Positions 4,957-61,211 of a stretch of 64,000 bases of DNA are shown one piece after another. The stretch is from the NCBI GenBank assembly GCA_964016885.1, contig OZ024743.1, forward strand, positions 304,110,001 through 304,174,000, read 5' to 3'. This DNA comes from Eledone cirrhosa (lineage: Eukaryota). The notes beneath the pieces are model-generated. The model was given only the letters and a program-made list of their open reading frames with translations, searched no databases and had not been told where the DNA came from. Each line of letters opens with the position of its first letter. Position 1 is the first letter of the stretch. The position numbers and the translations under genes are program-made.

Positions 4957-7900
4957 GATTTCATTTATTGGCCACAAGGGCCGACATATAGCGGACAATA
5001 CAAAAGACTGGGACTGTGGTTTTAAAAAAAAATCGAGTAAACAATATGAATAACAATAACAAAGTAACAATAACATGTTATGACCATCTAGTGTTCGCTC
5101 AGGTACACCGCTAGTCCTGACCGACCCGACGCTTCGAGAGCACCTTGGAAGGGCACCCTCGCCTCTTCAAATTTACATACCTACAGCAGCATGACCAGAG
5201 TAGGCCCACTCACACGGGCCATTCTCGCCACATTCACCCACCTTTCAGCAAATGTACTGGGGGGCAGCACTTCTCTCTCCGCCCTCACCTTCCTTTCCAA
5301 TTGAAACTTGAAAATGTTGATGAGGGATTGGCCGAAGAGAAAAGTGTCTGTCTTCAGTCCTTTCAACCTCGTCCACCATACAACCTCTTTCGCTACTGCC
5401 ACAAGACAGAGGAAAATTGCCTACCCTCCCTGGCCAAACTAAGGCGGCGGGTCGATCTTCACTATGGACTCGGCCGATAGCCGGATCCGTTCTACACGCG
5501 ACAACAGCTGTTCAACATGTCAGTAATGCACGGACACTGGCCGAATGCGTACAGAACGGTTTCGTCGCTCAGCGCGCATCTCGGGCAGGTCCGTCTAACA
5601 GCATGTCCGTGCCTGTAGAGTTTATATCGAACCGGCAGTGCCCCCCGGTAGTACTGCCAAGCGAGGGATTTTTGGAAATTATCCACCGTCCCCGGCTCAA
5701 AAGTCCTCCGGTACAGACTGGTTAGTTCGACTTCGTTGACTCCCAGAGCCTCTTCGAGTGCGTCGTATCACTTGCTCACCACTAATCCTCTATAGAACTC
5801 GATGGTGGAAGTTCCACTGACCGCATTTCCCGCCTGGTAGTGGGCAATGAGTGCCTGGCAACATTCCAGATGCCAATCACCCAGTCTTCGGCGTCCACAC
5901 CTGTTCACCGTTTAGGCAGAATATCTGGAGATGCCGCAGCCTCAGCGAGTGCCTGCGCACCATTAGCCACGGCATGATCCGCCCTCCACGTAGTGGGTGC
6001 TGGCATCAGATGGACCGCCTCACCAGCGGAACCTGGCCCCTCCACAAGAATTTGAAGAGGAGCCGCTCCAATATGGCGAGGCTGAACGGGGGCAAGGGAC
6101 GATAGTCAGACGTTAGTAGATGACGGACGCGATGTACGCGTTTGCCACCTCCGCCCGACCTTTTATTGATCGCTTCATCCCAGCCCATTTCTGGGTGACA
6201 CTGACTACCCTGCCCGTCACCTCATCCCAATTCTTATCCACCTGGAGGTATGGCCCGAACCAAACCCCTAGCAACTTTACCGGTCCGTCCAGCGCCTAAC
6301 GACGCTGTTGGACGGCATGGACTAGCCTCTCCAGGTGCCGAGTTGCAAGCCCACTGACTTTTCCGGGTTAAGTTTTGCTCCCGTCAAACTTTCATATTCC
6401 TCCAATAAATTGCCGACCACTTCGATTTCTGAGGTGTGCGACACCATCACGGTGATGTCGTCCGCATAAGCCGACACAGCCTTTCCGTGTCCCGGTTCGA
6501 GCGGGATGCTCTGCAACAGCTCCAGCTTCCGCAGTAAAGGCTCGAGAGGCAATACGTACAGAAGGGAGGTGAGAGGGCACCCTTGACGGACCGATCGGGA
6601 GACCTGAAACGGTTCCGAGAGGTGGCCATTAATTTTGACCATCGAGCAGGTGCCGCTGTGCATTGCAGCGATCCAGCTTCTGAAGACCTCCAGGTACCGA
6701 TGGTCGACCCTATCGAATGCTTTCGATTGATCTAAATTAATCAGAGCCCCACCGAAGCCAGGTTTACACCCAACCCTCTCTATGATGTATCGCATTAGGT
6801 GAAGTTTGTCGTGTATGGACCTGGTTCGGATTGCGCAAATGTGTGCACCCCTCCCCCCCCCCCCCCCCCCCCAACCAAATCCCCGAAGACTAGCGCCAAC
6901 CTCTTCGGTAACACCCTGGCCAAAATCTTAAACTCTGCGTTGAGCAGAGTTATGGGCCTGAAATTGTCTAGTGTGTCCCTCATGTTCTCGTCTTTCCTTA
7001 TCAGCGTCACTACGCACCGGCTCACAGAACTGGGAATACTCCCGTTTTGCTGCCAGTTGCAGTAGAGGGCTTCGAGGAGATTTGACAACAAGTCTGGCAT
7101 ATTTACGTAAAGCTCGTAGTGCAGACCATCCAAACCGGGTGACTTGCGCCTCATGCAGCCGACAAGGGCATCCTGAATCTCGGCTGAAGTAATTGGCCGT
7201 TTGCAGCGCGCAGGGTCAGCCGTCGAGAGTTGGGGTAAGCCATCGAGGTAGGGACTGAAGTCCGCCACCATCTCTGATCCGCTACTTCCCCCGAACAACC
7301 GAGCAAAATGTTGGCGAAAGGCCTCACACATCCTCTTGGGAATCGCTCAGCTCGTGCCCGTCTCAGTCCCTCAAATACCGAATCGTGGTTTTAATTCCAT
7401 GCTGCACTTCTACCACGTGGGCCCATCGAACAGCTTTGGTTCCCTCGTTTCTCAGAGCACGTGCCTTAGCTCTGACAATGCAGCCTTCGTGTTTCGCATT
7501 GAAGAAATAGTCTAATGCCATTCTCGCCGCTAGCATGTCAGTTGCAATGACACTACCAGTAGCCTCGTCTAACTTATCTACCAACTGCCCCTCCTTTCTA
7601 TTTTTCTCTAATACTACTTCTTTGCTAAACTCTATAGACATTACTCTATAGACATTACTCTAATCCTGTCTATATACGATCTAGATGGCCCTATGCGGTT
7701 AGCCCAGGTCCACACTGGTGCATTAGGGAAATCTATTCGGTACCTGTCAGACAGTTGGAACTGGCTGATCAGATTCTTGAGGCTTTTGCACCCCCCGCTT
7801 CTATCGGATACTCCCACACAGTCCCAGCGTGCGTCTAAGATGCCGTTCCAGTCCCTCGCTAACAGTAAAGGGGGAGACGTACCTAGAATGGCTTCCAGGC

Positions 7901-10191
7901 GTCTAAAGAAGTCCGGCCGTCCTGCTCCAGTAGGAGCATAGACGGCCACCAGTCTAAAGGCACCACCTTCATTATTGTTCACGTCCAGGACCACCAATTT
8001 CCCGTCCGGGACCCGGAAGATCGACCTTACCTCTAGATCCAGGCTTTTCCTAAACAGCACTGCCACCCCGCCTCCCATTCCAGGCCGGCTAACAGATGCA
8101 AAGATCTGATAGTCGTCTAAAATGGGGGCTAGTACGCGCGTGTCGGAAATCCTGGTCTCGCTTAATGCAATTACATCCATTTCTATAGACCTGAGGTCGT
8201 TGAGCAGGTAACCCTGCTTCCAGGACGATCCCAGGCCTCGAACATTTAAACATCCTACTCTTAAAACGGCCATGTTGGCAGGTTAAACAGAGAGAGAGGG
8301 AGGTTTAATTACCTGCCGGGCTCTTGTGAAAGTCGGGTTGTTCGACCTATATAATTAGTAGGTTTCTTTTGGGAACCCCTTTAAAAGTTTTGAAGTGGGT
8401 TTTACGTTCGGGGTTGCCATGTCCCGAGGAAAGCTGTCTCGGATTTCTTTGAATATGTCAAGCGACATTTAAACCAGAACCAAATCTTCCGGCACGCTAA
8501 ATGTGCTCGATTTAAAAATGTCCCCCTCTTTTTGTATATTTTCAGTTCGTGCTACGAAGGCCATCAGTTCCTTGTTGGCCCTCCTGACGAGCACGAAGTT
8601 TTGTATGTTTTGTTGGTGTGATTTTATTTGTTTGCGTGGCTGTGGTGGTGATGGTTTTGGTGGTGTTGTTTCGGTTATATCTGTGTTTGTTGTGAGTGCG
8701 GTGTCTATGGTTTCAGATGTTTGTGTGTATATTTGTTCTTGCGTCTGTTTCAGTTGTTTGCGTCTGGGGGATTCTGGTGATGGTGATGGTGGTGTTGATG
8801 TTGGTGTTATTGGAGAGATGTTTGCGTGGGTGGTGTCTGCGTTTTCTATTGTGTGTGATGTTGTGGTTTGTTGATTTTTTTTTTTTTTGTGTTTCCTTTT
8901 TTGCATTTTGGTGGATTTGGGATTTCCCTCATTTTCACTACTGGTAGATGTAGGGTGTGTCTGTAAGTTTTTCTCTATGTATGTTTAAGGTTTTATTGGT
9001 GTGTGTATTTGGGGGGGGGGGGAATTTGACAGGTTTCCTCGTTTCCCCCCTAGGTGTTCAATGTTGGTGGTGGTCTTTCTATTGGTGTTGTTGTTGGTGT
9101 TTTTGCCGGTGCTTGTGTTGGTTGTTGTTTTCACATCCCAGAAGCCACCACATGTCAAGTCCTGGTGGGATTCTGTGAATGCGGAGATGGGCCGTTCTTT
9201 TTCCCATGTGGGAGGGGTACATTATGTCCTTGCTGGTTTTGCAAGGAGTCATAGCGTGTTTCATAGCAAGGGCTTCTAACTTGAACAACACTGAAATGGT
9301 GCCGTACTGTCTGCCCCTCTCTATGTACTGGATGTCTTCTCTGCTGCACATCAGCACGACTTTTACATCTTCTATTGGGATTAAAGCTTCCCTTTTGGTT
9401 TGTGCTGAGATGCATCTATAAAGCACCGTTTTGCGCTCCACTGCCTCAATAGCTTCTACCGGGACAGTTATGTTGGCTCAAGTTTGCTCTTGCTTGATGA
9501 TCTTCCATGCCTGGGCCAACTTTTCATCTTTGTTTGAGAGGTTCATGTTGAAGCATGGCCTCTATTTTGCCGCTGCCGCAGCGAAAGTGTTATTCTTGTT
9601 TTCGTTGGGGGTTTTATTGTCGTTGTTCTTGTTGGTGTTGTTGTTAGCACTGTCGCTGTTATCATTGTTGTCTTTGTTGCCACCATTGTTCTCGGTGAAG
9701 TTGGTATTGTTGCTGTTGGTGTTGTCGCTATTTGTTTTCATATTATTGGTGTTGATATTGTTGTTGTATTTGTTATTTTTTTTTCATCTGTATTTTCGTT
9801 GTCGCTGTTACCGTCATTTTCTTCTAAATTAGTGTTCTTATTGGTATCATTGGTGTCTTTGTTTACATTGTTTGTGGTGGTGTTTGTGTTATCAATGTGT
9901 GTTAATTTCTCTGTAGCGCTCCTCTCAACTTCTACGTTGTTGTCGCACGACAGCCGACATATAGCTGGGGGCGTGGCTCAGCCATGTTTATTTTTTTCGT
10001 AAATTTTTTAACATGTAAAAAAAAAGTTCAAATATTTGGGCCAAAAGGGCCAAATATTATAATTTCCCCTTCACGGGGCAAAGTCTAAAGGCTTATATCC
10101 TTTACACAACAAGAAATATTTAACAACAAATAATTTTAACAGGCAAATAAAACGACTTACTGTGAGCGAGCAAAATACGTCCGCTTAGACC
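4957..10191 (-). mobile_element. Tx1-clade LINE, family B copy 1, both ends present, internal deletions and frameshifts
   Basis: EN ORF 7641-8273 (LNVRGL, LSETR, SYIDRI). RT fragments 6322-7331 (YADD). 3' end GGCCCTTGTGGCCAATAAATGAAATC+(ATT)n. 5' end GGTCTAAGCGGACGT. Confidence 0.93.
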
Positions 10192-10212
10192 AATAATAAT
10201 AATAATAATAAT
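10192..10212. repeat. (AAT)n tract between the Tx1-B1 5' end and an R4/Dong element
   Basis: Seven AAT units. Confidence 0.9.
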
Positions 10213-12400
10213 AGTATTGGATTAAAAATATAACATCCCTCCACCTGAAACTGACAACCATGTTAAATGACTGTTTGATGTCAGTTGGGCTACCAGAGTG
10301 GTTGACAAAAAGTACCAGAGTTCAGGTAATGAAATATCGAATCAATGGTAATGATGTTACCAACTATAGACCTAGCACATGTCTGTCAGTAATGTGGAAA
10401 CTGTTGACAAGCATTATGTCTCAGGAAATCTACCATCACCTCCACACAAACAACTTGTTAACGGACGAACAGAAAGGATGCCGAAAGAAGTCCCGCAGAG
10501 ACCAGTTACTTATTGATAAGATGGTAATGAGGAATTGCAAGAGGACACACAATGGTCTTGCCATGGGATGGATAGACTACAAAAAGGCATTTGACATGGT
10601 GCCTCATTCTTGGATCACCACAAGCATAGACATCTTCAAGGCGGCAGACAACATCAGACAGTTGTTGGGCAAAAGTATGAAGTCCTGGAAAACAGAGTTA
10701 ACATCAGCTGGAGAATCCTTGGGAGGCGTGAAGATCAAGAGAGGTATCTTCCGGGGAGATAGTCTGTCCCCTCTGTTGTTTGTCCTTGCCCTGATGACCC
10801 TGACCATTATACTGCGAAAAGTGAGAGCAGGATACAAGTGGGGAAAGGGAGAGCTTACCATCAACACCTCCTCTTCATGGACGATCTTAAGCTCTTCGGA
10901 AAGAGTGAGAAGAAGTTGGATGTGCTTGTTGACACTGTCCGTATTTTCAGCAATGATATATGTATGCAATTTGGTATTAGTAAGTGTGGAGTCCTTGTGA
11001 TGAAGAGGGCTAAATTGAGAAGAAGCAACGGAATCCAGGTACCAACAGGTGAGATGATAAAGGAAATTGACACTGAAGAAGGATACAACTATTTGGGTGT
11101 TCTGGTGGCTGATGACATCAAGAACAAAAAAATGAAGGAATTGATAAGAACTGAATACATTCGGCGAGTAAGGAGCGTATTAAAGTCACATCTGAACAGT
11201 AGGAATGCCATAAATGCAGTAAATTCCCTAGTTGTGTCTATTATTAGGTACAGTGCGGGAATTCTGAGATGGAATGTTGCTGAACAAAAAGAAATGGATA
11301 GGAAGACTAGGAAGCTATTGACTATCTACAACATTTACCACAAGAGGAGTGATGTCGATAGACTCTACTTAAGGAGATCTGAAGGTGGAAGACGTCTTAT
11401 CAACATAGAGGACTGTGTTCAGATGGAGAAAAACAGCCTATACAAATACGTGACTGATAGTAAGGAGCCAATGCTCAGAATTGTACTGAAGGAGAGGACA
11501 ATAGACGAGGGGATGTCCGAAGAGGAAATAACAACAAGGAGAAAGAGCAGCCTTCATGAAAATCCCTTCATAGTACCTTCTTTTAGAAAAGTGAATTTAG
11601 AGATCCACAGACATGGAACTGGTTGAAAAGAGGAGACCTTTAAAAGGCTACAGAAGGAATGCTAATGGCTGCGCAAGAGCAGGCCCTCATAACGAATTGG
11701 CTGAAACACCATATTTACAAGGAGGAGGCTAGCCCACTGTGTAGGATCTGTGGAGAGAGAGAGAGGAGACTGTGGCTCACATTGTATCCGAGTGTAAACA
11801 CCTTTCCCAGACTCACTATAAAGGCTGGAGACATGATGTGATGGGCAGGGTGATCCACTGGCACCTATGCAAAGTAAACAATTTACCACATTCTGAGAAG
11901 TGGTATGAGCATAAGCCAGAGTCGTTGATGGAAAACGATCAAGTGAAGGTGCTGTGGGATTTTAGGATACGGACGGACAAGAAACTGGAACACAATAGAC
12001 CTGACCTGGTTGTTTCGGACAAGGGAAAAAGATCGTGCCTGATTGTGTATGTAGCCTGCCCATTTGACAGGAGAGTGCAAGAGAAGGAGAGGGAGAAAAT
12101 TAACCGATACCAGGGCTTAAAGTGGGTGGTAAAAAGGATTTGGAACTGCCATGAGGTCAAAGTGGTCCCGATTGTCATAGGCGCACTAGGTACTATCTCA
12201 AAGAGTTTCCAAGGATGGTTAAAGAAAATTGGTCCTGCCCCGCTTTTTGGAACACTTCAAATGGCATGCTTGCTGGGAACAGCAAGAACCCTCCGATACG
12301 TCCTGAATATCTGAGGCTGCAGGTAGTGGCTTGATATTCATTTCAACAAACTTTCCAGTTAAATAACATCATTGACTGAGACTCAAATAACAATAATAAT

Positions 12401-12433: not shown

Positions 12434-12436
<3 letters not shown>

Positions 12437-15600: not shown

Positions 15601-17434
15601 ACGTTTTCAGATAACAAATCTTGAAAAACAAATTCCAAAACGAAGTACATATATATATATATAGAGAGAGAGAGAGAAAGAGAAAAATGTACAACCCCGA
15701 CGGCAGAGCTCAAGCTGTTTCGCCGGCTATATATATATGCGTGTGTGTGTGTGTGGGTGGATTTACAGTAAAAAGAAAATAAGCTCTTGATATATTAACT
15801 TAGATGCAACTCGTGTTGGAGGGAATATTTTGTAGGATAACATGATATAGGTTGTGTGCGAAAGAATATTGTCACTTAAATATCTACAGATTTTTTTCTG
15901 ATTACTCAACTGGCGTCGATATCATTACAGCTATCTGCTGGGCTCATTTGAAGGTTCACTTCCATGTAACCAGATGTCCATGGCTCAGCAGGAGCTACTA
16001 TAAAGCACGCACGTGATAACTGCTATAACACTCGTAGGCAGCTAGGAAAAATGACTGCATGTCTAGTGAAATTTCCCTATCAGATATCAACAAATATGAA
16101 GTTGCTATTAGCAATATTCAATGAACAATGAAAAAAAACATCCCTGCTTAAATATTCTTTTACGTCGAAGTTATTTTGACAACACGAGTAAACAACAAAG
16201 AACCAAAGTACAGTGTTGTGTTATGTGAGTGTGATTGGGTTTGCATGAATGCGCAATAGTCTCAAAAGATACATGACACTAACTGCTCGATGACCGAAAG
16301 TGCCATTGATGAGTATCTGTTAAGAACTACATTGTTATAGTTGCTGGAAAAACGTAAGTTGCACTCACGGCTGGACCGTAGCGACAGCCTATTTAACTCG
16401 AAAAAAGTATGAAAATATAACATCGTATATAATTTTAATCTAACTCGTTCACATTATGTTTTACCGGTCTGATCTATTCATTTCTCTTTGCAAGAGAGAC
16501 AAACTATACTGTATTTCAGATTTTATATTTTGCAGTTCAATTGTATAATTAATTTAAATGTTTATCTGTATTTGCAATTACAAATTGTGAAAAGGATGCC
16601 CCAAAACCGTATTCCTTTCTCCTTGTTTTCTGTTTTTAATCCAATCGTATGGAGGGCGTTTTATATTATGAAATGTTTGCTGCTCGCTTTTACATTAATA
16701 CTTACCATTTCTACTTCTACATAACCTCTCTCTGTCTTTACCCCCCCCCTACACATTCACTCTAATATATAATTCACCACGCCTTCGCATTCTCAATGAG
16801 GTACTTACACCGTAGACTCCTGCACTAACATACCGTTTCTTGCCTCTTCCTTCTCTATTCCTCTTCAGCATATATCCTTCCAAATCCCATGTCTAGTCCA
16901 TGAGGTCTTACCACAATCCAGTTCATCATTTCCACTTTCTCCATCTAACTCTTCTTATTGACACCTTGTTGTTGACCCATTTCATATGATATGCATCTCC
17001 GTTTCCACAGGTTGTAACCATTGTAACTGCTTATGGGTTCAACATTTATTTGTTCCTACATTTTCTCTCATTTCCTATTTTCTTCTTTTATTCCTCATTG
17101 ATGAAAAATGTAACCGGAAAGATCAGATCCATCCACTTTCTATATAGTTATGACTCGAATATGGCCTGTCACAACAATACAACTGAATTCACGAGTCATC
17201 TCCGAATCAACTATATTCTCTAATCTTTATTTCTCTTTGCAGTATAAACTGTTATTGATTTACTAATTAGCCATGTGGTACTGAGATACAATATTTCTCA
17301 AGGGTCAGAACATTTTTGGTGGTGGGTTGTATATCAAAAAACAACACACATTTTTTTAAATCACGTACATATTGTTTATCTACCGTTGTTTTACTAATCA
17401 TGTGTGAGAGTTTATATGCTTTTCCCTTGCCATT

Positions 17435-17550
17435 CTGAGTTCAAATCCCGCCGAGGTTAACTTTGCCTTTCATCCTTACGGGGTCGATAAAATAAAGTAC
17501 CAGTAATACACTGGGTAATTGTTGGCCTTGTGCCTAACGTAGAAACAATT
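17435..17550 (+). mobile_element. tRNA-derived SINE (octopus OK-like), 3' part
   Basis: GAGTTCAAATCCCGCCGAGG (B-box-like), then CTTTGCCTTTCATCCTTACGGGGTCGATAAA and GGCCTTGTGCCTAACGTAGAAACAATT. Repeated ~10 times in the window; family name recalled, not searched. Confidence 0.8.
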
Positions 17551-17718: not shown

Positions 17719-19542
17719 TCAAAGTTGATAAATTTCAATTGTTGGCTTGGGTATCATTCTTGTGATAACAAGTTGCTTCTCAGAACGATTTATATCCAAA
17801 GCTACAGGCATTAGGATCTGTGATGAAGGAGTAAGGTAGTTAATGAAGTTACCGAATAGATCGAAACGTAAAATGTTTGAGCGTCCAAGTTCTGTGAGGT
17901 ACATGTATTCAGTATCAGAACAAACACCACCAGGTCCTTCAATTGGTTGTCCGTCAATGTGTTTGATGAGGAATTTTTTATTACCCGATCGATCGATACC
18001 GTACAGTAAACCAGCTCTGTAGCACGATAGAACGATATTATCATCAGGTGTTATTGTCATGTAACAAGGATCTGATTTAGAGACAGAGGCAATATCAAGA
18101 AAGAATTGTTGTAGAGGTTTGGCTCTATTATCAATAATGAAGACAACTTCGATAACAGGTTTTTCTAAGCATTTGCAAATTAACCTTCCATCATAGCCTT
18201 TGGCAATAGCACTGTACTTAATCTTGCATTGGATTCTTTGATATTTCCTTAGGAAATTCAACATGCACATGACATTTGCAACAAAATTTCGTGAAAATTT
18301 AATGATGCACAATTGTAGTTCGTTAGGTAGAGAAACAATTGCGAAGTTATGTGAGTGAATGCACAAACCATGCGGTTGACTTTTAAAATCAAATCTATTA
18401 ATTTGATTTCCTTTTGGACAGAACTGTAAGATTCCGTGTTTATTGTCAGACATTAGATATCCCCCTCCAGGAATGATACAAATTAAATTTAAAATTGATG
18501 TAAAAACACTTTCGTCATCGGAGGAAAATTCTGTAATTTTTTGTAAGTTTATAATATTTGGATATTTCATCTCTTTTCCTTGAGATTTTTTCATTTCTTT
18601 TGTGTGCTCTATTTTCTCAATAAATACGTCGTCGTCGTAACTAACATGACCGAATTGACATTTTTCTAAATCTTCCAGGGCTTGTGAAAATTGTGATGTA
18701 ATATTTAAACATAAGACTCTTCGCGTTAAACGGTAGTCAGAAGAATGAAATCCGCTTATACATTTCCTTAGAGGAAAATAAGACATAACAAATTTGGAAG
18801 CAGTTTTCTCTTTCAACACATCAGAAACTTTATCTATACAATTTTTTATGGATTCTATTTTTTCTTTGTAATTCTCTTCATAAATACGAAGTTTCTCCAA
18901 TTCAACATTCATCATACTTGTGGCGTCTTTATTTAGTAAATCTCCTTTAGATGTTATCATTCGAACGATATCTTTGACGTGTGTGTCTACTTTATTCGAT
19001 ATTTTCTCTTTATCACTCAGAATATTTTCTTTCTCTAAGTGTAATTCTTTAAGTTTCTTATTTTGTTTTCCTCGCAAATCCTTCAGAAATTTCAAGTGAT
19101 TCTCAGCTTCGATTCGTTTTGATATGGCAGCTTGACTTATTGATAAAACACCTTTACAGTTTTGGTGCTTCTCGCTGCGACATTCACTGCATATAACCTC
19201 TTCACAAAACGCGCAAAACAAGTTTATTTCATTGTTATCATGACACATACAATTCATAACAGTATCAAAAGAAACCATTTCTTGTATCTGAACGATCCGA
19301 AAGTCATTATGATAGGTTTTCGCCCATTCTTCTATTGATACACTACGATCTAGTGGGTAGGTTACAGCTTTGCAGATTGGACAATGGAAATAACCAAATT
19401 GTAAGCAAATTTGTTTATTATTATTGATATGATCCTGTAGGCAACCCACGCAAAAGCAATGGTGACAGGGAAGTCCTTTCGGTTTGTCAAACTGACTGAA
19501 GCATATGGAACATTCTAGATCCGTTAAACTCAAGGACGCCAT
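17719..19542 (-). CDS. Tripartite-motif (TRIM) E3 ubiquitin ligase: RING, B-box2, coiled coil, NHL-like beta-propeller (TRIM2/3/56/71-like), 607 aa, single coding exon
   Basis: C3HC4 RING CSIC..CHHCFCVGC..CPIC; B-box CMCH..LFCAFCEEVICSEC..H; helical middle region; propeller-like repeats (PHGLCI, PCYMTI, GPGGVCSD, PVALDI). Uninterrupted ORF. ATG lies 17 nt after a TTTTCAG acceptor. AATAAA at 17701-17706 and 17636-17641. Confidence 0.9.
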   Translation of the reverse strand: MASLSLTDLECSICFSQFDKPKGLPCHHCFCVGCLQDHINNNKQICLQFGYFHCPICKAVTYPLDRSVSIEEWAKTYHNDFRIVQIQEMVSFDTVMNCMCHDNNEINLFCAFCEEVICSECRSEKHQNCKGVLSISQAAISKRIEAENHLKFLKDLRGKQNKKLKELHLEKENILSDKEKISNKVDTHVKDIVRMITSKGDLLNKDATSMMNVELEKLRIYEENYKEKIESIKNCIDKVSDVLKEKTASKFVMSYFPLRKCISGFHSSDYRLTRRVLCLNITSQFSQALEDLEKCQFGHVSYDDDVFIEKIEHTKEMKKSQGKEMKYPNIINLQKITEFSSDDESVFTSILNLICIIPGGGYLMSDNKHGILQFCPKGNQINRFDFKSQPHGLCIHSHNFAIVSLPNELQLCIIKFSRNFVANVMCMLNFLRKYQRIQCKIKYSAIAKGYDGRLICKCLEKPVIEVVFIIDNRAKPLQQFFLDIASVSKSDPCYMTITPDDNIVLSCYRAGLLYGIDRSGNKKFLIKHIDGQPIEGPGGVCSDTEYMYLTELGRSNILRFDLFGNFINYLTPSSQILMPVALDINRSEKQLVITRMIPKPTIEIYQL

Positions 19543-19559
19543 TAGTTCGTAGGATGTAT

Positions 19560-19580
19560 CTGAAAACAGTATTAATAATA
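19560..19580 (-). promoter_or_regulatory. Splice acceptor of the TRIM coding exon (exon starts at 19559)
   Basis: Minus strand TATTAATACTGTTTTCAG|ATACATCCTACGAACTAATG. Confidence 0.7.
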
Positions 19581-19658
19581 CAGAATAAATAATAAATATA
19601 ATACATAGAATAATCATAATAATCAAATTGACAACAACAACAATAATAATAATAATAA

Positions 19659-19695
19659 TTGTTTCTACTTTAGCCACAAGGCCAGCAATTACCCA

Positions 19696-19697
<2 letters not shown>
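19659..19697 (-). mobile_element. SINE 3'-end fragment with (ATT)n tail
   Basis: Matches the 3' end of the SINE at 31321 (ttgtttctactttag.cacaaggccagcaatt). Confidence 0.75.

Positions 19698-19733
<36 letters not shown>
19698..19733. repeat. (AAT)12 tract
   Basis: Direct reading. Confidence 0.95.
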
Positions 19734-19735
<2 letters not shown>

Positions 19736-34762: not shown

Positions 34763-34809
34763 TTGTTTCTACTCTTGGCACAAGGACAGCAATTACCCTG
34801 TGCATTACT
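34763..34809 (-). mobile_element. SINE 3' fragment with (ATT)n tail
   Basis: ttgtttctactcttggcacaaggacagcaattaccctgtgcattactg. Confidence 0.75.
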
Positions 34810-40501: not shown

Positions 40502-40588
40502 GATTTGAACTTAGAATGTAAAGGGCTGTAACTCTACGCTGCAAAACATGTTGTCCGACGCTTTAAAGATACTGCCAATCCACCACCC
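40502..40588 (-). mobile_element. SINE 5' half, cut by the gap
   Basis: gatttgaacttagaatgtaaagggc...actgccaatccacc. Confidence 0.75.
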
Positions 40589-40779
40589 TACTAATATTAA
40601 CGATAGTAATAAAGATAAGACCTTCAACTGTGATAATGATAATATTTTTTTCTAGCGCCGCATAACCCGTCCCAATCTAGTAATGATTTCAGAAAACATT
40701 GGTTTTAGTGCAACCTGAAATTCAGTAATACTCTTTATGATTGGTTAAATGTCGAACGTCAATAGTTCAAATAACGATG

Positions 40780-42165: not shown

Positions 42166-42166
42166 A

Positions 42167-42626
42167 TTGCTTCCACAATAGTCACTAGGTCAGCAATTTT
42201 GGTGGGAGGGGAAAGTCGATTAAAACGCCCCAATTCATTAAAGGTGTTTTATTTATGAATCCCGTAAGGTGAAGGGGTTAGAGCATTGGGCTTGCAATTG
42301 AAAGTTTGTGAGTTCATTTCTCGGACCGGGTGATGTGTTGCTTCCTTGAGCAAGACATTTTATTTCCCGTTGCTCCAGTTTACTCAGCTGTAGAAATGAG
42401 ATGATAGGACTGGGGTCCCTATCATTAACTTACCCAAGAGACGTCCAACGAGATATACCTTGGAGGAGGCCAGCTAAACCTGCAAAGATGGAAGCTGTCA
42501 CACACACACACACACCCCGTAAGGAAGAAAGGCAAATCTAACCTCGGCTTGATTTCAATTCAGAACGTAAAGGGCTATATCTCTATGCTGAAAAGCATGG
42601 TGTGCGACACTCTACCGATGCTGCCA
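42167..42626 (-). mobile_element. OK-like SINE split into ~42167-42270 and ~42516-42626 by an insertion containing a second SINE type (+, ~42277-42400)
   Basis: ccc(c)gtaagg occurs at both breakpoints. The insert has gtgagttc...CCTTGAGCAAGACA..TTGCTCCAGT..ACTCAGCTG, typical of mollusc tRNA SINEs. Confidence 0.6.
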
Positions 42627-42639
42627 ATAATAATAATAC

Positions 42640-46943: not shown

Positions 46944-49900
46944 TCTATATATATAAATCTGAGGATGTGTGTGTTAAGGTTTGTAAACGATTTAAGTCCA
47001 CATTTTCCAACGGATTCTATTCAAAGTCGGGACACCTATTGCTTTTGGTCAGGAAAAGGTCATGAAGCAAAAACATTTCAAATCCATTAACAATAAGGGC
47101 AAAAATCGATCATGATAATTCCCCCTCTCTATAATTTAACTACTTTACTCTCTCTGTCGCTCTTCACTCCCTATATGACAACACTGCAGTGGAGCGTTCC
47201 GTATTGGCATACGGCTTAACTGGGGTATTTTCAATCGGCTTATTGCAAATAACAATCCGCAAAATAACACTTCATATAACAGATTAATGCTATAGACATA
47301 TGAATCGGAATGTAACCCGTGAACTTTTTCTGGGCAAAATTATTCGAACAGACATGACCTCATGCCAGTGTCCAGACTGAAATTGGCTAAACCCATGGCT
47401 TTAATCAAAAAGGGTCAGGTATTTGGGGCTGTAAAATGTGACATGTTCACCGTCGAATAGCAAAAACGAGGGCTGCCACATGCTCACATCTTGATTTGGT
47501 TAGCTGATAAAATCAATTCAAATGCCATAGACAGCTTCATTTCGGCTGAAATCCCTAACCCAGCAACTGACCAAGAATTACATGACATCGTCAAAGCTAA
47601 AATGGTCCGTGTGCGTCGGGTCCTAATGAGCATCGCACGTGTCTGAAAGGGGGGGGTCGTGCAGTTAGGGATACCCCAAAATTTGTTGACGAGACTCAGA
47701 CTGGTGGCGACGGGTACCCCCTGTACAGGCGGAGATGGCCCGAGAACTGTGGCTTCACCACAACAGTAAAGGGAGGTCAAGTCGACAATAGATGGGTGGT
47801 CCCTTACTGCCCGCTTCTATTGAAGATGTTCAACGCCCACATCAACGTTGAGTTTTGCAACTCCGTCAAATCTATAAGATACATATGCAAATATGTAAAT
47901 AAGGGCTCTGATGCCGCAATGTTCGCATTTCAAGCTGAAAATAGCAGGGACGAGGTCACAGAATAACTGGCGGGGCGGTACATCAGTAGCAATTAAGCTT
48001 TTTGGCGCCTATTTTGTTTACCCCTACCTCAACGGCACCCTGACATCGTACAGCTTGCGGTACACTTGGAAAATGGGCAAAGGGTTTACTTTACGGACCA
48101 AACCGCCGCCAATTTGGCAGCCGATCCGAAACAGACCACTCTGACGGGTTTCTTCAAACTTTGCCAGTTCGATACATTTGCGCAAACAATTGTGTACTCC
48201 CAGGTTCCATCCTACTTTATATGGTCGAAAAACACTTGGGTGCGAAGAAAGTCAGGTCAGGCTGTTGAAAGACATCCTGGTGTAAAATTTGACAGCTGTC
48301 TTGGAAGGGTTTACACTGTGCCCCCATTTCAGTATGAGTGCTTTCATCTCCGCCTTCTTCTGCATGAAGTTGTAGGCCCACAAAGTTTTCAGGACCTCAA
48401 AACTGTTGATAGAGAAATATGTGATACGTACCGGGAAGCCTGCTTTAAGCGTGGTGTTTTGGAAGATCATTCGCAATGGGATTCCACTTTAGCAGAGGGT
48501 CCTTTGTTGAAATCACCTAAAAGTCTACGGGAACTCTTTGCCATTTCGCTTCAAAATTGTGAATTGTGTGATCCCAAATCTTTATGGGTCAAGTACAGAG
48601 ACTTTCATGTCTGAGAACTTTCTGCGCCTGACTCATCTGCAGTATGCATGGAAGTTGGTTACAGCAACATTATCTACAACAGGGGACTCATTGATATCAA
48701 GGACGCCCTCCTTGACATGGGTAGGAGTGAATTGGCGACGTATGGCTTGCCGTCAACCGTCAGAGAGGAAGCTAATACGTTGGGACCGGATTTGTTGCGG
48801 GAAACAGCATATGACATCGAATCTGTTTCCCAATACTTAGGGGAAAATGAGCCCAAACTTCTGTCAGACCAAAGGTTGGCCAATTTAACTATCATTGATG
48901 CGGTTCAAAATCAGACTGGGGGTATTTACTTCCTCTATGCTCCTGGGGGTACAGGAAAAACCTTTGTAACGAAATTGATTCTCGCTAAGATTCGTCGGGA
49001 GAATAACATTGCGTTGGCCGTTGCATCGTCCGGGATCGCTGTCTATTTGCTGTCGAGAGGCAGGACAGCACATTCAACCTTTAAACTCCCCTTGGAATTA
49101 GTAAAATCTGAGACACCAACATGCAATATCAGCAAGAGCTCACACGAAGCTCTGGTTCTCAAATAATGTTGCCTCATTGTTTGGGATGAGTGCACAACGA
49201 CACACAAGAGTGCCCTTGAGGCATTGGACAGAACCCTGAAAGACATTAGGGATTCTACGGCTCCTATGGGTGGCGTAACCCTTCTGCTATCAGGGGATTT
49301 TCGGCAAACGCTGCCTGTCATCCCCAAAGGGACAAGAGCTGATGAAGTGCGTGCCTGCCTTAAGTCGTCCATGTTGTGGCTCCAGGTAAAGAGTTTGTAC
49401 CTGAGCACAAATATGCGTGCTCATTTGCATGGTGACAACATGTCTGCAGCATTTGCTCAGAACATTTTAGCACTTGGTGAGGGCAAGGTCCCTGCGGATA
49501 ACAAGGGCAGCATAGCATTCGACTCCCTGTGCAACATTGTGAGAATCCCTTCTGACCTTTGGGAAGCAGTTTTTCCTAATGTCTTAACTTTAAAAACCTC
49601 GATTGGCTCAGCGAAAGAGCCATCCTTGCTCCGAAAAATACCATGGTTAATGTTATTAACGAGCAGCTGATTGAGAAGATTCCCGGTAAATAGCACATCT
49701 TCAAATCTATCGACCGGACGTCAGACCCCGACGATATCGTTAATTATCCGGTTGAGTTATGAAATTCCCTTGAGCCCCCAGGGCTCCCACCTCACATTCT
49801 TAAGCTTAGGGCTGGCTGTCCCATTAAGATAATAAGGAACTTGCGTCCACCAAAGCAGTGCAACGGTCCTCGCATGGTCGTCAAGTCACTGACGCCCCAC

Positions 49901-52012: not shown

Positions 52013-53018
52013 GCTGACGGTATTTCAGGATACATGTCATTTTTAGTCATTATTTTATTTGACTAATTGTTATTGAATTTGCATTTCAGAAAATAACAAT
52101 GAAAATAACTATGCTTACTAATGAAATGAAAAGGCATGCTGTGATTATCGCTTTGAAGGCTAAGCATGGTGATTTAAACATTTCTCGTTTTCTGAAAGCT
52201 GCAAGATCTTTTGTCCACAAGATTTGATGTGAGTTAGAGGAAAAAGTTGGAAGCGTATTATCTGTACCAAAACGTAAAATAAAAATGTCAAACGCTCTGA
52301 TTCTATCAGGCCACCTGAATTTATTCAGGAAGTTAAGCAAACCATTGATGACAATCCAGGAAAATAAATGAGGTCAATTGCAAAGAATGTTGGTGTGTCA
52401 GAATAAACAATCAGAAATGTTGTACATGAAGACATCAGATATAAATTTTACGTGATGAGGAGAGGTCAATTCATGTCAGAAAAAACAAAAGAAAAGCGTT
52501 TAATCTGATCCAAAAGACTTTTAAACAAACTTATAAATCCATCAGAAGATGGAGTGATTTGGTTTTTCTCAGATGAGAAAAACTTTGACCAGGACCAAAA
52601 AACTAACAGACGAAATAACAGGTGGCTATGTGCAGACCCTTCTCAGCTTCCAAGAGTAATGCACACAAAATTACCTGCAAGTGTCATGGTTTTGGGTGTC
52701 GTTAGCAATGAAGGACATGTGATGCCTCCTCACTGTTTTCCACAAGGCCTTAGGGTGAATGCTGCTGCCTATATTGAGGTTCTGCGTGAAGTTGTTAAGC
52801 CTTGGATCAACAGTGTATGTAATGGAAGGCCTTATGTCTTTCAACAAGATTCAACACCATCACACAAGGCTCAAATGACACAAGATTGGATGGCTGATAA
52901 TTTGCATGATCATATCACCCCCAACATTTGGCCTCCTAATTCTCAAGATCTCAATCCACTGGACTACTATGTACTGTTGAGAAAAATGTCAGTCAACACC
53001 CTCGTCGTTCAAAAATAA
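52008..53018 (+). mobile_element. Tc1/mariner superfamily DD37D (maT-type) transposon, defective, 3'-truncated, inserted at (TA)n
   Basis: FSDEK, FQQD and WPPNSQDLNPLD, with 37 residues between D2 and D3. Upstream HTH region contains stops. Confidence 0.85.
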
Positions 53019-54943: not shown

Positions 54944-57900
54944 GATTTCATTTATTGGCCACAAGGGCCGACATATAGGGGACAATACAAAAGACTGAGA
55001 CAGTGGGGTTTTACAGAAAAATCGAGTAAACAATATGAATAGCAATAACAAAGTAACAATAAGAAAGTAACAATAAAGTAACAAGAAAATTATAAGAAAA
55101 AAATTCCCCAATAAGGGGGATGACCACCTAGTGTTCGCTCAGTACTCCACCAGTCCTGAACGATCCGACGCTTCGAGAGCACCCTGAAAGGACACCCCTC
55201 TCCTCTTCAAATTTACCTACCTACAGCCGCATAACCAGAGTAGGCCCACTCACACGGGCCATTCTCGCCACCTTCACCCACCTTTCAGCAAACGTATGGG
55301 GGGCAGCCTTTCTCTCTCCACCCTCAGCTTGCTTTCCTTTCCAAGTGAAACTTGAAAAAGTTGATGTGGGATTGGCCGAAGAGAAAAGTGTCTGTCTTCA
55401 GTCTTTTCAACCTCGTTCACCATACAACCTCTTTAGCTACTGCCACTAGACAGAGGAAAATTGCCTGCCCTTCCTGGCCAAAAGAAGGCGGTGGGTCGAT
55501 CTTCACTATGGACTCGGCCGAGAGCCGGATCCGTTCTACACGCGACAAGAGCTGTTCAACATAACTCCACAAGTCAGTAATGCACGGACACTGGACGAGT
55601 GCGTGCAGAACGGCTTCGTCGTTCTACGCGCATCTCGGGCTGGTCCGTCTGACAGCACTTCCGTGCCTGTAGAGTTTAATTCGAACCGGCAGTGCCCCCT
55701 GGTAGCAATGCCAAGCGAGGGATTTTTGGGAAATTATCCATCGACCCCGGCTCGAAAGTCCTCCGGATCAGACTGGTTAGTTCGATTTCGTTGACTCCCA
55801 GAGCCTCTCCGAATGCGTCGTCGCATTTACCCACCACTAATCCCTATAGAACTCGAGGGTAGAAGTTCCACTAACCGCATTGCCCTCCTGGTAGAGGGCA
55901 GTGACTTCCTGGCAACATTCCAGATGCCAGTCACCCAGTCTCGGTCTCTTCTTGACCCAGCACTGCAACTCAGTCAAAGAAACGAGCTGCAGAAATGCCC
56001 GTCTGATAAGCGGCGGCCACACCTGTTCACCGTTTAGGCAGAATATCTGGAGATGCCGCAGCCTCAGCGCGTGCCTGCGCATCATTAGACACGGCATGCC
56101 CACCCTCACGTAGAGTGTGCTGGCAGCAGATGGACCGCCTCACCAGCGAAACCTGACCCCTCCACAAGAATTTGAAGAGGAGCCGCTCCAAGATGGCGAG
56201 GTGCGAACGGGGGCAAGGGACGACAGTCAGACGGTAGTAGACGACGGACGCGATGTACGCGTTCGCCACCTCCGCCCGACATTTCAGTGATAGTTTCATC
56301 CCAGCCCATTTCTGGTTGAGACTGACTACCTGCCCATACCTCGGCCCAATTCTTATCCACCTGGAGGTCGGGCCCGAACTAAACCCCTAGCAACTTTACC
56401 GATCCGTCCGTCCAGCGCCTAACGACGCTGTTGGACGGCATGGACTTGCCTCTCCAGGTGCCGAGCTGCAAGCCCACTGACTTTTCCGGGTTAAGTCTTG
56501 CTCCCATCAACCTTTCATATCCCTCCAATATTTCTGAAGTGTCCAACACCATCACGGTGATGTCGTCCGCATAAGCCGACACAGCCTTTCCACGTCCCGG
56601 TTCGAACGGGATGCCCTGCAACAGCTCCATCTTCCGCAGTAAAGGCTCGAGAGTCAATACGTACAGAAGGGAGGTGAGAGGGCAACCTTGACGGACCGAT
56701 CGGGAGACCTGAAACGGTTCTGAAGACGGGGCCGAAGCCAGCCGCCTTGAGGACAGCCTCCAGATACCGATGGTCGACCCTATCGAATGCTTTCGATTCA
56801 TCTAAATTGATCAGAGCCCCACCGAAGCCAGGTTTACACCCAACCCTCTCTATGATGTATCGCATTAGGTGGAGGTTGTCGTGTATGGACCTGGTTGGGA
56901 TTGCGCAAGTTTGCGCCTCGCCAACCAAATCCCCGACGACAAGCGCCAACCTCTTCGCTAACACCCTTACCAAACTCTGTATTGAGCAGAGTTATGGGCG
57001 TGAAATTGTCTAATGTGCCCCTCTTGTTCTCGTCTCTCCTTATCAGCGTCACTACGGCCCGGCTCACAGAACTGCGAATACTCCCGTTTTGCTGCCAGTT
57101 GCAGTAGAGGGCTTCGAGGAGATTGGAGAACAAGTCTGGTATATTTACGTAAAGCTCATAGGGCAGACCATCCAAACCGAGTGACTTGCGCCTCATGCAG
57201 CCGACAAGGGCATCCTGAATCTCGGCTGAAGTAATTGACCTTTCGCAGCGCCCCGCGTCCGCCGTCGAGATTTGCGGTAAGCCATCGAAGTAGGGACTGA
57301 AGTTCGACACCATATCTAACCCGCAACTTTCCTCGAACAACCGAGCAAAATGTTGGCGAAAGGCCTCACACTAACAATGCAACCTTCGTGTTTCGCATTG
57401 AAGAAATCGTCTCATGCCATTCTCTCCGCCAACACGTCAGTTTCAATGCCACTACCAATAGCCTCGTCTAACTTATCTACCAACTCCCCCTCCTTTCTAT
57501 TTTTCTCTAACGCTACTTCTTGCTAAACTCTATCGACATTACTCTAATCTCTCTTTTGAGTGCCCCCCCCCCTCACCATCTATTGTTGACGATTCCCCTG
57601 TCAACTTTTTCTAAGCTAAATTGTTGACCTGGTCCCTGTAAGCCTTACGTGCCGGAAATGACATGTTTAGCTTCCAGTAACCAGGTCCTAACCTACGCGT
57701 CTTATCTACGTCGACCATACAGATCACAAACTTGTGATCTGAATAGGCGACCGTTTCAAAACATGGACAGCTTACACTATTTCTGTCTACTTTCCTAATG
57801 AATATCCTGTCTATATACGATCTAGATGACCCTATGCGGTTAGTTCAGGTCCACACTGGCGCATTAGGGAAATCTAGTCGTTACCTGTCCGACAGTTGGA

Positions 57901-60555
57901 ACTGGCTGATCAGGTTCTTGAGGCTTTTACATCTCCCGCTCCTACCGGATACTCCCACACAGTCCCAACGTGCGTCTAAGATGCCGTTCCAGTCCTCCGC
58001 TAACAGTAATGGGCGAGACGTACCCAGAGAGGCTTCCAGGCGTCTAAAGAAGTCCGGCCGTCCTGCCCCAGTAGGAGCATAGACGGCCACCAGTCTAAAG
58101 GCACCACCTTCGTTATTGTTCACGCCAGGACCACCAACTTCCCGTCCGGGTGCCGGAAGAGCAATCTTACCTCGAGATCCAGGCCTATCCTAAGCAGTAA
58201 TGCCACCCCGCCTCCCATTCCCGGCCGGCTAACAGGTGCAAGGATCTGATAGTCGTCGAAAATGGGGGCTAGTGTGCGTGTGTCGGAAATCCTGGTCTCG
58301 CTGACGGCAATTACATCCATTTCTAGAGACCTGAGGTCGTTGAGCAGGTGACCCTGCTTCCAGGACGATCCCAGGCCTCGAACATTTAAACATCCTACTC
58401 TTAATACGGACATGTTAGAATGTTACAGAGAGAGAGAGGAAAGATTTACTTACCTTCCGAGATCTTGTGAAGGTCGGGTGGGACGACCTCCATAGTTGGT
58501 GGGGTTTCTTTTGGGAACCCCTTTAAAAGTCTTGAAGTGGGTTTTACGTTCGGGGTTCCCACGCCCCGAGGAAAGCTGTCTCGTATTTCTTTGTATAAAT
58601 CGAGCGACATTCGAACCAGAATCAAATCTTCCGGCACGCGAAATGTGCTCGATTTAAAAATGTCCCCTTCTTTTTGTATGTTTCGTTGGTGTGATTTTAT
58701 TTGTTTACGTGGCTGTGGTGGTGATGGTTTTGGTGGTATTGTTTCGGTTGTGTCTGTGTTTGTTGTGAGTGCGGTGTCTGTGGTTTCAGATGTTTGTGTG
58801 TATATTTGTTCTTGCGTCTGTTTAGGTTGTTTGCGCTTGCGGGATACTGGTGATGCTGATGGTGGTGTTGATGTTGGTGTTATTGGAGAGATATTTGCGT
58901 AGGTGGTGTCTGCGTTTTTTTATTGTGGGTGATTTTGTGCTTTGTTGAATTTTTTTTTTCTTTTTGTGTTTCCTTTTTTTATATTTTGGGGGATTTGGGT
59001 TTTCCCTCATCTTCACTACTGGTAGATGAGGGGTCTGGTGTCTGTATGTATGTTTATGGTTTTATTGGTGTGTGTATTTTTGTTGGGGAGGGGGAATTTG
59101 ACAGGTTTCCTCGTTTCCCCCCTGGGTGGTCAATGTTGGTGGTGGTTTTTCTATTGGTGTTGTTGTTGGTGGTTTTTGCCGGTACTGGTGTTGGTCGTGG
59201 TCCTCGCCCCGGCGTCGGCAGCAATGGAGCCTTTCGACCGCTTGCCTCTTTCCACAGTTGAGGGCAGAAGGCTCGCAAATGGGTTTTTCCCCACAAACAA
59301 AACAATGCGGCATTTTGACATCAGTCATAATGTAAATGACCATCTCATTCTGAAGGTGGATGTGGTCAGAGATTGTCTTCAAATTCTCCGGCCTGCTCTG
59401 GAGAAGGATCTCCAGGTCAACTCCGGACCAATCCTCTCTGGCCGTTCTGGTCACTTCTATAGGGACGGTATCCGTCCCCTCCACAATCACACATCCTAGA
59501 AGCCACCACATGTCATGTCCTGGTAAGATTCTGGGAAAGCGGAGATAGGCCGTTCTTTTTCCCATGTGGGAGGGGTACATTATTACTTTGCTGATTTTGC
59601 AAGGAGTCATAGCGTGTTTCATAGCGAGGGCTTCTGGCTTGAACAACACCGAAATGGTGCCGCACTGTCTGCCCCTCGCTATGTCTTCGGTGTCTTCTCT
59701 GATGCACCTCAGCGCGACCTCGACATCTGCTTGTGGGATTAAAGCTGCCCTTTTGGTTTGTGCTGAGATGCATCTATAATGCACCGTTCTGCGCTCCACT
59801 GCCTAAATAGCTTCTACCGGGACAGTTAAGTTGGCCCAGGTTTGTTCTTACTTGATGAGCTTCCATGCCTGGGCCAACTTTTCATATTTGTTTGAAAGGT
59901 CCATGTTGAAGCATGGCCTCTTTTTTGCTGCTGCCGCAACGAAAATGTTCTTCTTATTGTCGTTGGGAGTGTTGCTGTCGTTGTTCTTGTTGGTTTGTTG
60001 TTATTACTGTCGCTGTTATCATTGTTGTATTTGGTGCCGCCGTTGTTCTCGGTGCAGTTGATATTGTTGCTGTTGGTGTTGTCGATATTGGTTTTCATGC
60101 TAGTGGTGTTGATACTGTTGTTGCATTTGTCATTATTTCTGTTATCTGTATTTTCGTTGTCGCTGTTACTGTCATTTTTTTTCAAAATAAGAGTTCTCAG
60201 TGTTGTTATCATTGCTGTCTTTGTTCACATTGTTTGTGGTGGTGTTTGTTGTATCAATTTCTGTTAAATTTGCCGTAGCGCTCCTCTCAACTTCTACGTC
60301 GTTGTCGTACGACAGCAGAGATATCGCTGGGGCGTTGCTCAGCCATGTTTTTTTTTCTTTTTTCGATAATTCTTTTTTAAATGTAAAAGAATTCAAATAT
60401 TTGGGTCTTAGGGCCCAAATATTATTCTTTCCCCTTCACAGGGCAGAGTCCAAGGGCTTGTATGTCTTACGCAACAACAAAAAATGCAATAAATAAGTTT
60501 TGACAGGTAAATAAATAAACTTACGGGAGCGAGCAAAAAGACGTCCGTTCAGACT
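54944..60555 (-). mobile_element. Tx1-clade LINE, family B copy 3, full-length ends, frameshifted
   Basis: Same 3' end as B1 and B2. EN start MSVLRVGCLNVRGL at 58413. YADD present. The 5' end AGTCTGAACGGACGT adjoins the degenerate AT tail of the SINE at 60583. Confidence 0.93.
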
Positions 60556-60582: not shown

Positions 60583-60757
60583 GTGTTTCTACTTTTGGCA
60601 CAGAGCAACCAGTTATTCCAGTTAATTATTGGTACTTTATTCTATCGATCCTATAAGGATAAAAGGAAAAGTTATGCTCGGTGGTATTTGAACTCAGACC
60701 GTAAAGGGCCGTAACTCTATGCTACAAATCATGGCGTCCGACCCTCCACCGATACTG
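60583..60757 (-). mobile_element. SINE (OK-like)
   Basis: Homologous to 31321-31507. Confidence 0.8.
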
Positions 60758-61027
60758 TATAATAATGATGGTATTGATGATGGTCTTGGTGATGCTATTT
60801 TGGGTTGTAGTGGTAGTGGGGTCGGGTTTCAATTATTACTGATGTTGTCATATAAGTTGGATGATGATGACGTAAGGAGAATATTGATGGTGGTGACATT
60901 GTTGATGAGTTTGTCCCATATTATAGACATTCTTTTAAAATCCAATAAGTGCAACCATTTGTTTCTACTCATTCTGCTTAGAAAACATTTCATGTAGCCA
61001 ATACAAGCAGATTTCGAAAGAAATAAT

Positions 61028-61211
61028 TGTTTCTACATTTGGCACGAGGCTTGTAATTATTTCCAGTGCATTACTGGTACTTTATCTTATCTAAAGCGTA
61101 AGAATGAAAGGCAGAGTTAACCTCAGCGGGATTTGAACTCAAAATATAAAGGGACGTAACTTTATGCTGGAAAACAGGGTCCCTGACCCTCTACCAATGC
61201 TGCCAATCCAC
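61028..61211 (-). mobile_element. SINE (OK-like)
   Basis: Homologous to 31321-31507. Confidence 0.8.

Follow-up and report, generated by a model that had tools for sequence, protein, structure and literature searches.

Stem-loops shared between the 3′ tail of a short interspersed element (SINE) and that of a long interspersed element (LINE) have been described for pairs involving L2, CR1, and L1 of plants. Recognition in the L2 clade is loop-specific and stem-tolerant (Hayashi 2014, PMC4176376), and within the L1 group a shared 3′ end is described for SINEX-3 and L1-1_CR of Chlamydomonas (PMC3472496, PMC3747384); here and below, statements on cited papers refer to their accessible sections. 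Related SINE/LINE literature includes Matetovici 2016 (PMC4758252), Kojima 2018 (PMC5786205), SINEBase (PMC3531059), and Nishihara 2016 (PMC4824008). Octopus vulgaris has recently active L1-Tx1, RTE, CR1, and Dong-R4 families as well as 893 unclassified SINE families, and SINEs occupy 11.6% of its assembly, most of the recently active families being unclassified; the accessible part of that study contains no partner analysis (Bonar 2026, PMC13282606). The sections of Ohshima 2013 (PMC3747384) accessible to us include no octopus, squid, or mollusc and no Tx1 partner, and a cephalopod SINE–Tx1 pairing was not found in the literature, where Repbase Reports, Dfam, or subscription papers could record one. 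Here, we analyze a stretch of 64 kb from the 3.0-Gb genome of Eledone cirrhosa (assembly GCA_964016885.1, contig OZ024743.1, positions 304,110,001–304,174,000; hereafter the window), in which LINEs of the Tx1 type and an abundant SINE end in the same short predicted hairpin and are inserted at the same ATTAT sites; the SINE thus likely borrows the copying enzyme of Tx1, a partnership that we did not find described.

The reading that we favor, with a probability of roughly 0.6, is that the shared hairpin, GAAA, and ATTAT reflect copying of the SINE in trans by the open reading frame 2 (ORF2) protein, ORF2p, of the ATT-targeting Tx1 lineage, which would grip the hairpin. Judged from the compared sequences, mobilization of the SINE by ORF2p of an ATT-targeting Tx1 LINE is highly probable; that ORF2p would recognize the SINE through the hairpin is also probable, but to a clearly lesser degree.

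The ATT-targeting Tx1 LINEs fall into three families by their 3′ ends, in which the hairpin reads AACC-CTTGT-GGTT (family A, 30 of 42 ends), GGCC-CTTGT-GGCC or GGCT (family B, 44/49), and AGCC-CTTGT-GGCC (family C, 9/11), each being followed by AATAAA(T)GAAA, two bases, and then ATTAT (39/42, 47/49, and 9/11 ends in A, B, and C, respectively). Among the families, the loop varies between CUUGU and CCUGU only. The SINE is ∼186 nt in length and occurs in a short and a longer subtype, both of which end with TGGC-CTTGT-GCC(A/T), seven bases, and GAAA. Genome-wide, a general Tx1 end pattern (stem of 3–4 bp, loop, and AAUAAA-GAAA) was matched exactly 34,517 times versus 15 times by reversed controls, and exact counts of the individual types were 2,740 for B-type, 10,739 for A/C-type, and 8,147 for TATC-type ends, the last of which are described below. 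One SINE tail pattern alone had 123,857 exact matches, and 152 SINE-like tails found with a tail matrix in 116 evenly placed 10-kb stretches extrapolate to ∼390,000 copies.

When the joint motif was defined as three paired bases, a C-C[CT]TGT-G core, and GAAA 7–8 nt later, it occurred 93 times in an even sample of the genome (1.16 Mb, the 116 evenly spaced 10-kb stretches), namely 87 times with the SINE stem and six times at Tx1 ends; no occurrence outside these elements and none in the reversed sequence was found in the 1.16 Mb. A preliminary description of this DNA had noted loop, spacing, and GAAA as common to Tx1 and the SINE, and 93/93 occurrences of the motif belong to these two element types. 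With a matrix trained on SINE tails alone, furthermore, ends of Tx1 family C were the best non-SINE matches (17.8–22.2 bits), and nine of the ten such best non-SINE ends have Tx1 ORF2 upstream. With a 7-nt core, the stem, and the GAAA spacing in common, the 3′ end of the SINE thus appears to be homologous to a LINE 3′ end, albeit over a length far shorter than in classic pairs; the end of Tx1-C is the closest, and the acting family could be A, B, or C, which the ends do not distinguish.

In 11 representative ends (eight Tx1 and three SINE; hand-picked, related rows), the three inner pairs of the stem form in 33/33 cells, and the stem differs by double changes, G-C to A-U in Tx1-A and C-G to G-C in the SINE. 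The covariation check suggested in the preliminary description, as applied to these family ends, gave a score of 0.355, which was reached in 0/500 shuffles, with slid controls of at most 0.091; because the rows are related, however, this score amounts to about two independent double changes and carries no probability. The loop is conserved, and the stem changes look compensatory.

ATTAT follows 74 of the 95 sampled SINE ends, which were found without requiring ATT, while its background is 0.23% of positions; a comparison of insertion sites, as the preliminary description had proposed, therefore gives ATTAT after the SINE and after Tx1 families A, B, and C alike. A target duplication of non-simple sequence was found in 41/94 analyzable SINE copies versus 2–5 after shuffling. 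These duplications are 9–20 bp with a mode of 18 (11/41); an exact ATTAT start is seen in 25, and T or C precedes 36/41. Where a SINE copy has three ATT units and its duplication is readable, three units are present on both sides (4/4). Since ATT begins the target duplication, the (ATT)n that had been described as a tail of the elements is mostly target DNA; it is not demonstrated as a carried RNA tail, although a few templated AUU bases may remain. The Tx1 ends likewise show a target-sequence preference. In seven truncated Tx1 copies, duplications are ∼13–22 bp, three of them 18 bp, and all start at ATT; among ATT-type Tx1 ends as a whole, a non-simple duplication within 1.5 kb was found in 10/105 versus 1, 4, and 5 in shuffles. 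Some copies with extreme 5′-truncation retain little beyond the hairpin and a spacer, a part of them with duplications (Tx1-B at loci L027, L118, and L127; SINE at L102, L093, and L035).

The short SINE has a median divergence of 5.6% from its consensus (29 scored of 36), and the medians of Tx1 are 1.0, 1.0, and 5.8% (AAAGC) in subfamilies of A, 4.7% in C, and 1.3 and 4.0% in B; the Tx1 samples (5–14 copies per family) are biased young because they were picked by exact end patterns. The age of the SINE overlaps with those of Tx1-A(AAAGC) and Tx1-C, and the age comparison called for earlier thus places the SINE within the range of the Tx1 medians, 1.0–5.8%.

In the window, we found three copies of Tx1-B, two of Tx1-A, and at least seven SINE copies with a recognizable tail. 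Most of them are carried on the minus strand in head-to-tail stacks joined by ATT tracts, for example SINE (31507–31322), Tx1-A, Tx1-B, and truncated SINE (19697–19660). The copies are as follows:

1–4935, minus strand: Tx1-A LINE, copy 1; begins right after the ATT tract behind Tx1-B copy 1 and exits the window; RVT_1 and zf-RVT
4957–10191, minus strand: Tx1-B LINE, copy 1; ORFs broken, deletions inside; ATT tracts flank both sides; APE domain
4970–4982, minus strand: 3′ hairpin of Tx1-B copy 1, GGCC-CTTGT-GGCC
17423–17547, plus strand: SINE, 5′-truncated; hairpin TGGC-CTTGT-GCCT (tail 17523–17547), then ATTATG only
19660–19697, minus strand: SINE, 5′-truncated; stem TGGC/GGCT; adjoins the ATT tract of Tx1-B copy 2
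19734–25479, minus strand: Tx1-B LINE, copy 2, almost full-length; 3′ hairpin GACC-CTTGT-GGCC at 19747–19759
25501–31276, minus strand: Tx1-A LINE, copy 2, almost full-length; 3′ hairpin AACA-CTTGT-GGTT at 25513–25525
31322–31507, minus strand: SINE, full-length, short subtype, ∼186 nt; A-box-like and B-box-like motifs, body
31334–31346, minus strand: hairpin of the SINE at 31322–31507, TGGC-CTTGT-GCCT, then AAAGTAGAAACA
34563–34745, minus strand: SINE, full-length; one stem mismatch (TGAC/GCCA); 5′ limit approximate
34764–34810, minus strand: SINE, 5′-truncated, tail part only; stem TGTC/GCCA
54944–60555, minus strand: Tx1-B LINE, copy 3; hairpin GGCC-CTTGT-GGCC at 54957–54969
60584–60757, minus strand: SINE, older, hairpin degraded; immediately upstream of Tx1-B copy 3
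61028–61209, minus strand: SINE, older, loop variant CTCGT

All Tx1 and SINE 3′ ends listed in the preliminary description were recovered within one base of the positions given there. The stem with one mismatch that it ascribed to Tx1-A is indeed present at 25501 but is a change in one copy, since the majority of the family (30/42) has the perfect AACC/GGTT; the SINE stem is broken in the copies at 34563 and 34764.

The ORF2 pieces in the window contain Exo_endo_phos (APE endonuclease), RVT_1, and zf-RVT domains. A homolog search returned 592 proteins, the named ones including “Transposon TX1 uncharacterized 149 kDa protein” at 36%, and a relative at 50% identity (P0004) matched human L1 ORF2p with an E value of 1e-72 versus 6e-29 for R2. 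With APE, reverse transcriptase (RT), and a C-terminal zinc finger, these LINEs appear to be Tx1-like members of the L1 group. In a quick RT tree of 52 rows, built without reference L1, Keno, Kibi, or Koshi, every hairpin-bearing copy falls in one clade with a support of 100. An ORF1-like frame at 3809–4408 has a CCHC knuckle by eye. The 5′ untranslated regions of Tx1 contain a GC-rich hairpin-like motif ∼140–150 nt from the start (at ∼4786, 10051, 25339, 31126, and 60416, minus strand), whose loops, e.g., CTTGA, CTTCA, and CTTTT, resemble the 3′ hairpin; CUUGU itself is in 0/5 of the 5′ ends in the window. As for relatives outside this genome, two metagenome scans yielded no locus, and reads from two other organisms span the end of the Tx1 ORF2 but are uninformative at the hairpin.

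The head of the SINE looks like a transfer RNA (tRNA) type, in which motifs resembling the A and B boxes were recognized by eye from the box consensus, and no parent tRNA was matched by ARAGORN or Rfam. The element is short, non-coding, and of high copy number, with target duplications and both boxes, as in tRNA-derived SINEs. Membership in the MetaSINEs was considered and rejected; visually, the body does not resemble the Meta sequences of bivalves, and a search for two words of the body returned no match in the part of the PMC4824008 supplement that was covered. We also noticed other arrangements of the SINE: a tandem array of seven 77-bp units from its 3′ part including the hairpin (L008, 1690–2224), inverted SINE tails back to back (L052), and a truncated SINE next to which the flank is inverted (L155, near 2890, plus strand), the latter two of which suggest twin priming or fold-back.

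Not all Tx1 LINEs of this genome target ATT. Further families end with GCC-CTTGT-GGC or GCC-CCTGT-GGC, AATAAAGAAA, and then TATC repeats. In the RT tree, this TATC group (support 98) is nested beside B, and ATT is hence probably the older target. SINE tails followed by TATCTATC had 73 genome matches, 59 of which run through an ordinary ATTAT and then CTATC; use of TATC by the SINE was rejected, the 73 matches not exceeding the ∼130 estimated from base composition. The SINE is thus present at ATT and nearly absent at TATC, which points to the ATT sub-lineage as its partner. We also considered that the loop sequence might track target choice, which was rejected because many TATC families have CUUGU too.

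Whether another LINE supplies the tail was approached from the tails themselves. In the even sample, a SINE body lies upstream of 145/152 tails, and the other seven read as truncated or degraded SINEs, one of which (L094) is ambiguous. Of 230 tails in 190 loci that were obtained by searches, most of these loci being enriched for ATT arrays, 212 have a SINE body, the remaining 18 being eight apparently truncated or rearranged SINEs, nine Tx1-C ends, and one TATC end. No LINE other than Tx1 with a SINE-like tail was found among these 152 and 230 tails, from which a family supplying less than ∼2% could escape; a different LINE clade matching the SINE tail over a longer stretch, which the preliminary description had named as grounds for giving up the pairing, did not appear among the sampled tails. 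In RT surveys, pieces of Tx1, RTE, Dong/R4-like, CR1-like, and I-like LINEs were present, clade labels that we assign partly from sequence motifs. RTE was rejected as a partner: it ends with GGAAAAGCGGACGTAAAA(TGA)n without the motif and has its own SINE. Indeed, a second abundant SINE shares ∼35 nt of the RTE 3′ end and (TGA)n almost exactly (L107, L147, L287, and L008) and is, by its sequence, a classic RTE-tailed SINE. Downstream of the CR1-like, I-like, and second RTE hits, CCTTGTG was not found in the next 2.2 kb or, where the locus is shorter, in the rest of it. Elements that we take, from their motifs, to be Dong/R4-like share the ATT tracts and were also rejected, since they lack the motif and end with (AAT)n on the opposite strand. 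The window has two of them:

10215–12390, plus strand: second Dong/R4-like LINE; ATT tract upstream of Tx1-B copy 1, opposite strand; limits approximate
31560–34548, plus strand: Dong/R4-like LINE; same ATT tract, opposite strand; (AAT)n end without hairpin; limits approximate

Two Dong/R4-like families were noticed in Tx1/SINE ATT tracts, on the opposite strand, in the window and at loci L038, L050, L063, L066, L078, and L240, and two unrelated endonuclease types hence converge on one microsatellite.

As a mechanism, ORF2p would bind the 3′ hairpin, and its APE endonuclease would nick the antisense strand at 5′-ATAAT/R-3′, where we infer reverse transcription to be primed; a second nick ∼18 nt away would then create a duplication beginning with ATTAT. 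By analogy, the implied nick parallels the TTTT/R rule of L1. Since every insertion creates a further copy of its target site, LINEs and SINEs would accumulate in head-to-tail order within ATT tracts, the arrangement present in the window. The hairpin is probably required but does not suffice. The SINE would be kept off the hairpin-bearing TATC lineage by a second key, which could be recognition specific to the lineage or base pairing between a short 3′ AUU end and the nicked DNA. Only tentatively, we would extend this proposal: the Tx1 lineage may be a stringent retrotransposon reading a 3-bp stem, the CUUGU loop, and GAAA together with a second, target-tied key, and the SINE (∼400,000 copies) may have captured this handle of ∼25 nt and remained associated with the ATT lineage as a sister lineage changed to TATC.

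Several observations weigh against copying of the SINE through the hairpin by Tx1. The match between the SINE and Tx1-C is short, 16–18 of 25 nt (64–72%; by eye on the alignment), whereas RTE and its SINE match nearly exactly over ∼35 nt, and the compared LINE ends include no directly defined one from L2 or I/Nimb. A Tx1 family with the exact stem of the SINE and AATAAA was searched for in the genome, and all six hits were mutated SINEs. Besides the relatedness of the aligned rows, which reduces the weight of the covariation, the stem change in the SINE may just as well reflect a B-like stem that lost one pair; the outer pair does not form in 7/11 rows and is T-T in 35/89 SINE copies. Predicted energies of the isolated hairpin are −6.6 kcal/mol for B and a weak −3.0 kcal/mol for the SINE. 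The predicted hairpin is absent from the minimum-energy fold in four of five contexts of 51–57 nt and in that of a 145-nt SINE piece, the folding z-scores being unremarkable (−1.08 to +0.53); if formed, the hairpin probably needs protein. The TATC-type families have the hairpin and an age similar to the ATT families (medians of 2.7–5.0%), and yet the SINE is nearly absent at TATC, so that the choice of partner is not determined by the hairpin alone. The excess of duplications at Tx1 ends is modest, three of the ten being unconvincing. Finally, three or more ATT units follow 43/52 Tx1 ends versus 4/28 SINE ends (background, 162/4,537), and the targeting is hence not identical; Tx1 may prefer longer tracts, or its RNA may include AUU repeats, as a cleavage site downstream of AAUAAA would be expected to lie within the tract.

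The marginal folding and the presence of the hairpin in the TATC sisters, to which the SINE has not moved, would be expected if ATT-targeting Tx1 mobilizes the SINE with the hairpin left unread, either as a relic of tail capture or as a 3′-processing signal beside AAUAAA; in the LINEs, the hairpin directly abuts this canonical signal. Specificity would then come from the endonuclease target and pairing of the last AUU bases of the RNA. Nonetheless, the SINE keeps the loop, the stem pairing, and the spacing of GAAA in both subtypes while losing AAUAAA, a retention that neither a relic nor an RNA polymerase II processing signal explains, and the stem changes are double-sided; we hence regard an unread hairpin as rather unlikely. 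Tx1, the partner proposed in the preliminary description, is upheld as likely by the 3′ motif, stem covariation, ATTAT, duplication length, ages, and no better match among sampled LINEs, while its proposal falls short in that the hairpin by itself cannot decide, given the TATC sisters.

Another partner, rarer or extinct (L2, CR1, I/Nimb, RTE, or Dong/R4), would make the likeness to Tx1 a result of older tail exchange or shared ancestry. The identity of 64–72% over 25 nt would allow for such a history, coleoid genomes are reported to contain L2, CR1, and other LINEs (Marino 2022, PMC8967140), and the 152 tails, with L094 ambiguous, leave room for ∼2% (∼7,700 ends) from an unseen family. With a SINE body at 145 of these tails, Tx1 as the sole LINE among the 230 search-derived ones, RTE and Dong/R4-like ends differing in sequence and strand, and CCTTGTG not found in the regions scanned downstream of CR1-like, I-like, and second RTE hits, we consider this explanation improbable. 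Least credible is chance or convergence of short AT-rich ends. A short motif with a 3–4-bp stem might invite it, but it is largely refuted by the zero counts outside these elements and in the reversed sequence of the 1.16 Mb, and position at the extreme 3′ end, spacing, target, and duplication length agree too.

Other features were noticed in the window. At 17719–19737 (minus strand), directly downstream of the 15-kb pile-up of SINE, Tx1, and Dong elements, there is an uninterrupted frame of 672 codons from stop to stop with an N-terminal RING finger, TRIM-like by eye, which is possibly an intronless host gene or a retrocopy. At 37197–38375 (minus strand), a spin-doc zinc finger is encoded in a frame that looks hAT-like, and PIF1 helicase fragments (Helitron-like) and a DDE_3 transposase piece are at 47997–49670 and 52509–53018 (both plus strand). 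A run of 200 N at 40302–40501 interrupts a SINE copy, the 5′ part of which is at ∼40502–40613 (minus strand), and a long-subtype SINE at 42158–42637 (minus strand) is broken by other repeats, apparently including a different SINE on the opposite strand.

If the proposed partnership is true, a driver would be named for one of the most abundant repeats in this genome, and stringent 3′-end recognition in the L1 group would be extended from plants and algae to an animal Tx1 lineage. This would also be relevant to the proposed origin of L1 elements that read poly(A) from ancestors of the stringent type (PMC3472496). If the tentative minimal handle is true as well, it would be among the smallest recognition signals of LINEs, and the ATT and TATC lineages would constitute a natural swap separating RNA recognition from target choice. 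Because these sisters share the hairpin but not the passenger, the roles of the RNA handle, 3′ pairing, and the endonuclease are directly testable by swaps.

In comparison with known systems, these Tx1 LINEs resemble Kibi at (TC)n, Koshi at (TTC)n, and crocodilian Tx1 at (TTCC)n/(TTTC)n in preferring microsatellites, with sisters differing in the repeat (PMC4494074), while the targets here are ATT and TATC, and no SINE with a shared tail is reported for those elements in the accessible part of that paper. In crocodilians, a Tx1 partner was also proposed for SINEU from a target shared with Tx1-Mar and concurrent age (Kojima 2015, PMC4494074), as is partly the case here; SINEU, however, has a poly(A) tail and a small nuclear RNA head, with no LINE sharing the 3′ end of SINEU-1 in the sections available, whereas the present pair shares a 3′ hairpin and the SINE has a tRNA-type-looking head. 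Maize ZmSINE2/3 and sorghum SINEs with LINE1-1_ZM are alike in having an L1-group hairpin with compensatory changes that is shared with SINEs and proposed to be stringent (PMC3472496); these plant and algal pairs differ in sharing ∼50–80 nt and in being neither of the Tx1 clade nor from animals, and the plant hairpins have energies of −10.8 to −17.7 kcal/mol. The L2-clade pairs belong to a different clade, and their binding and retrotransposition were shown by experiment (PMC4176376); here, the predicted stem has 3–4 bp, target DNA makes up most of the terminal repeat, and the elements prefer particular insertion sites. Like UnaL2/UnaSINE, ZfL2-1, and ZfL2-2 (PMC4176376), nonetheless, Tx1 and the SINE of E. 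cirrhosa have in common a predicted 3′ stem-loop in which the loop is specific and the stem can be exchanged.

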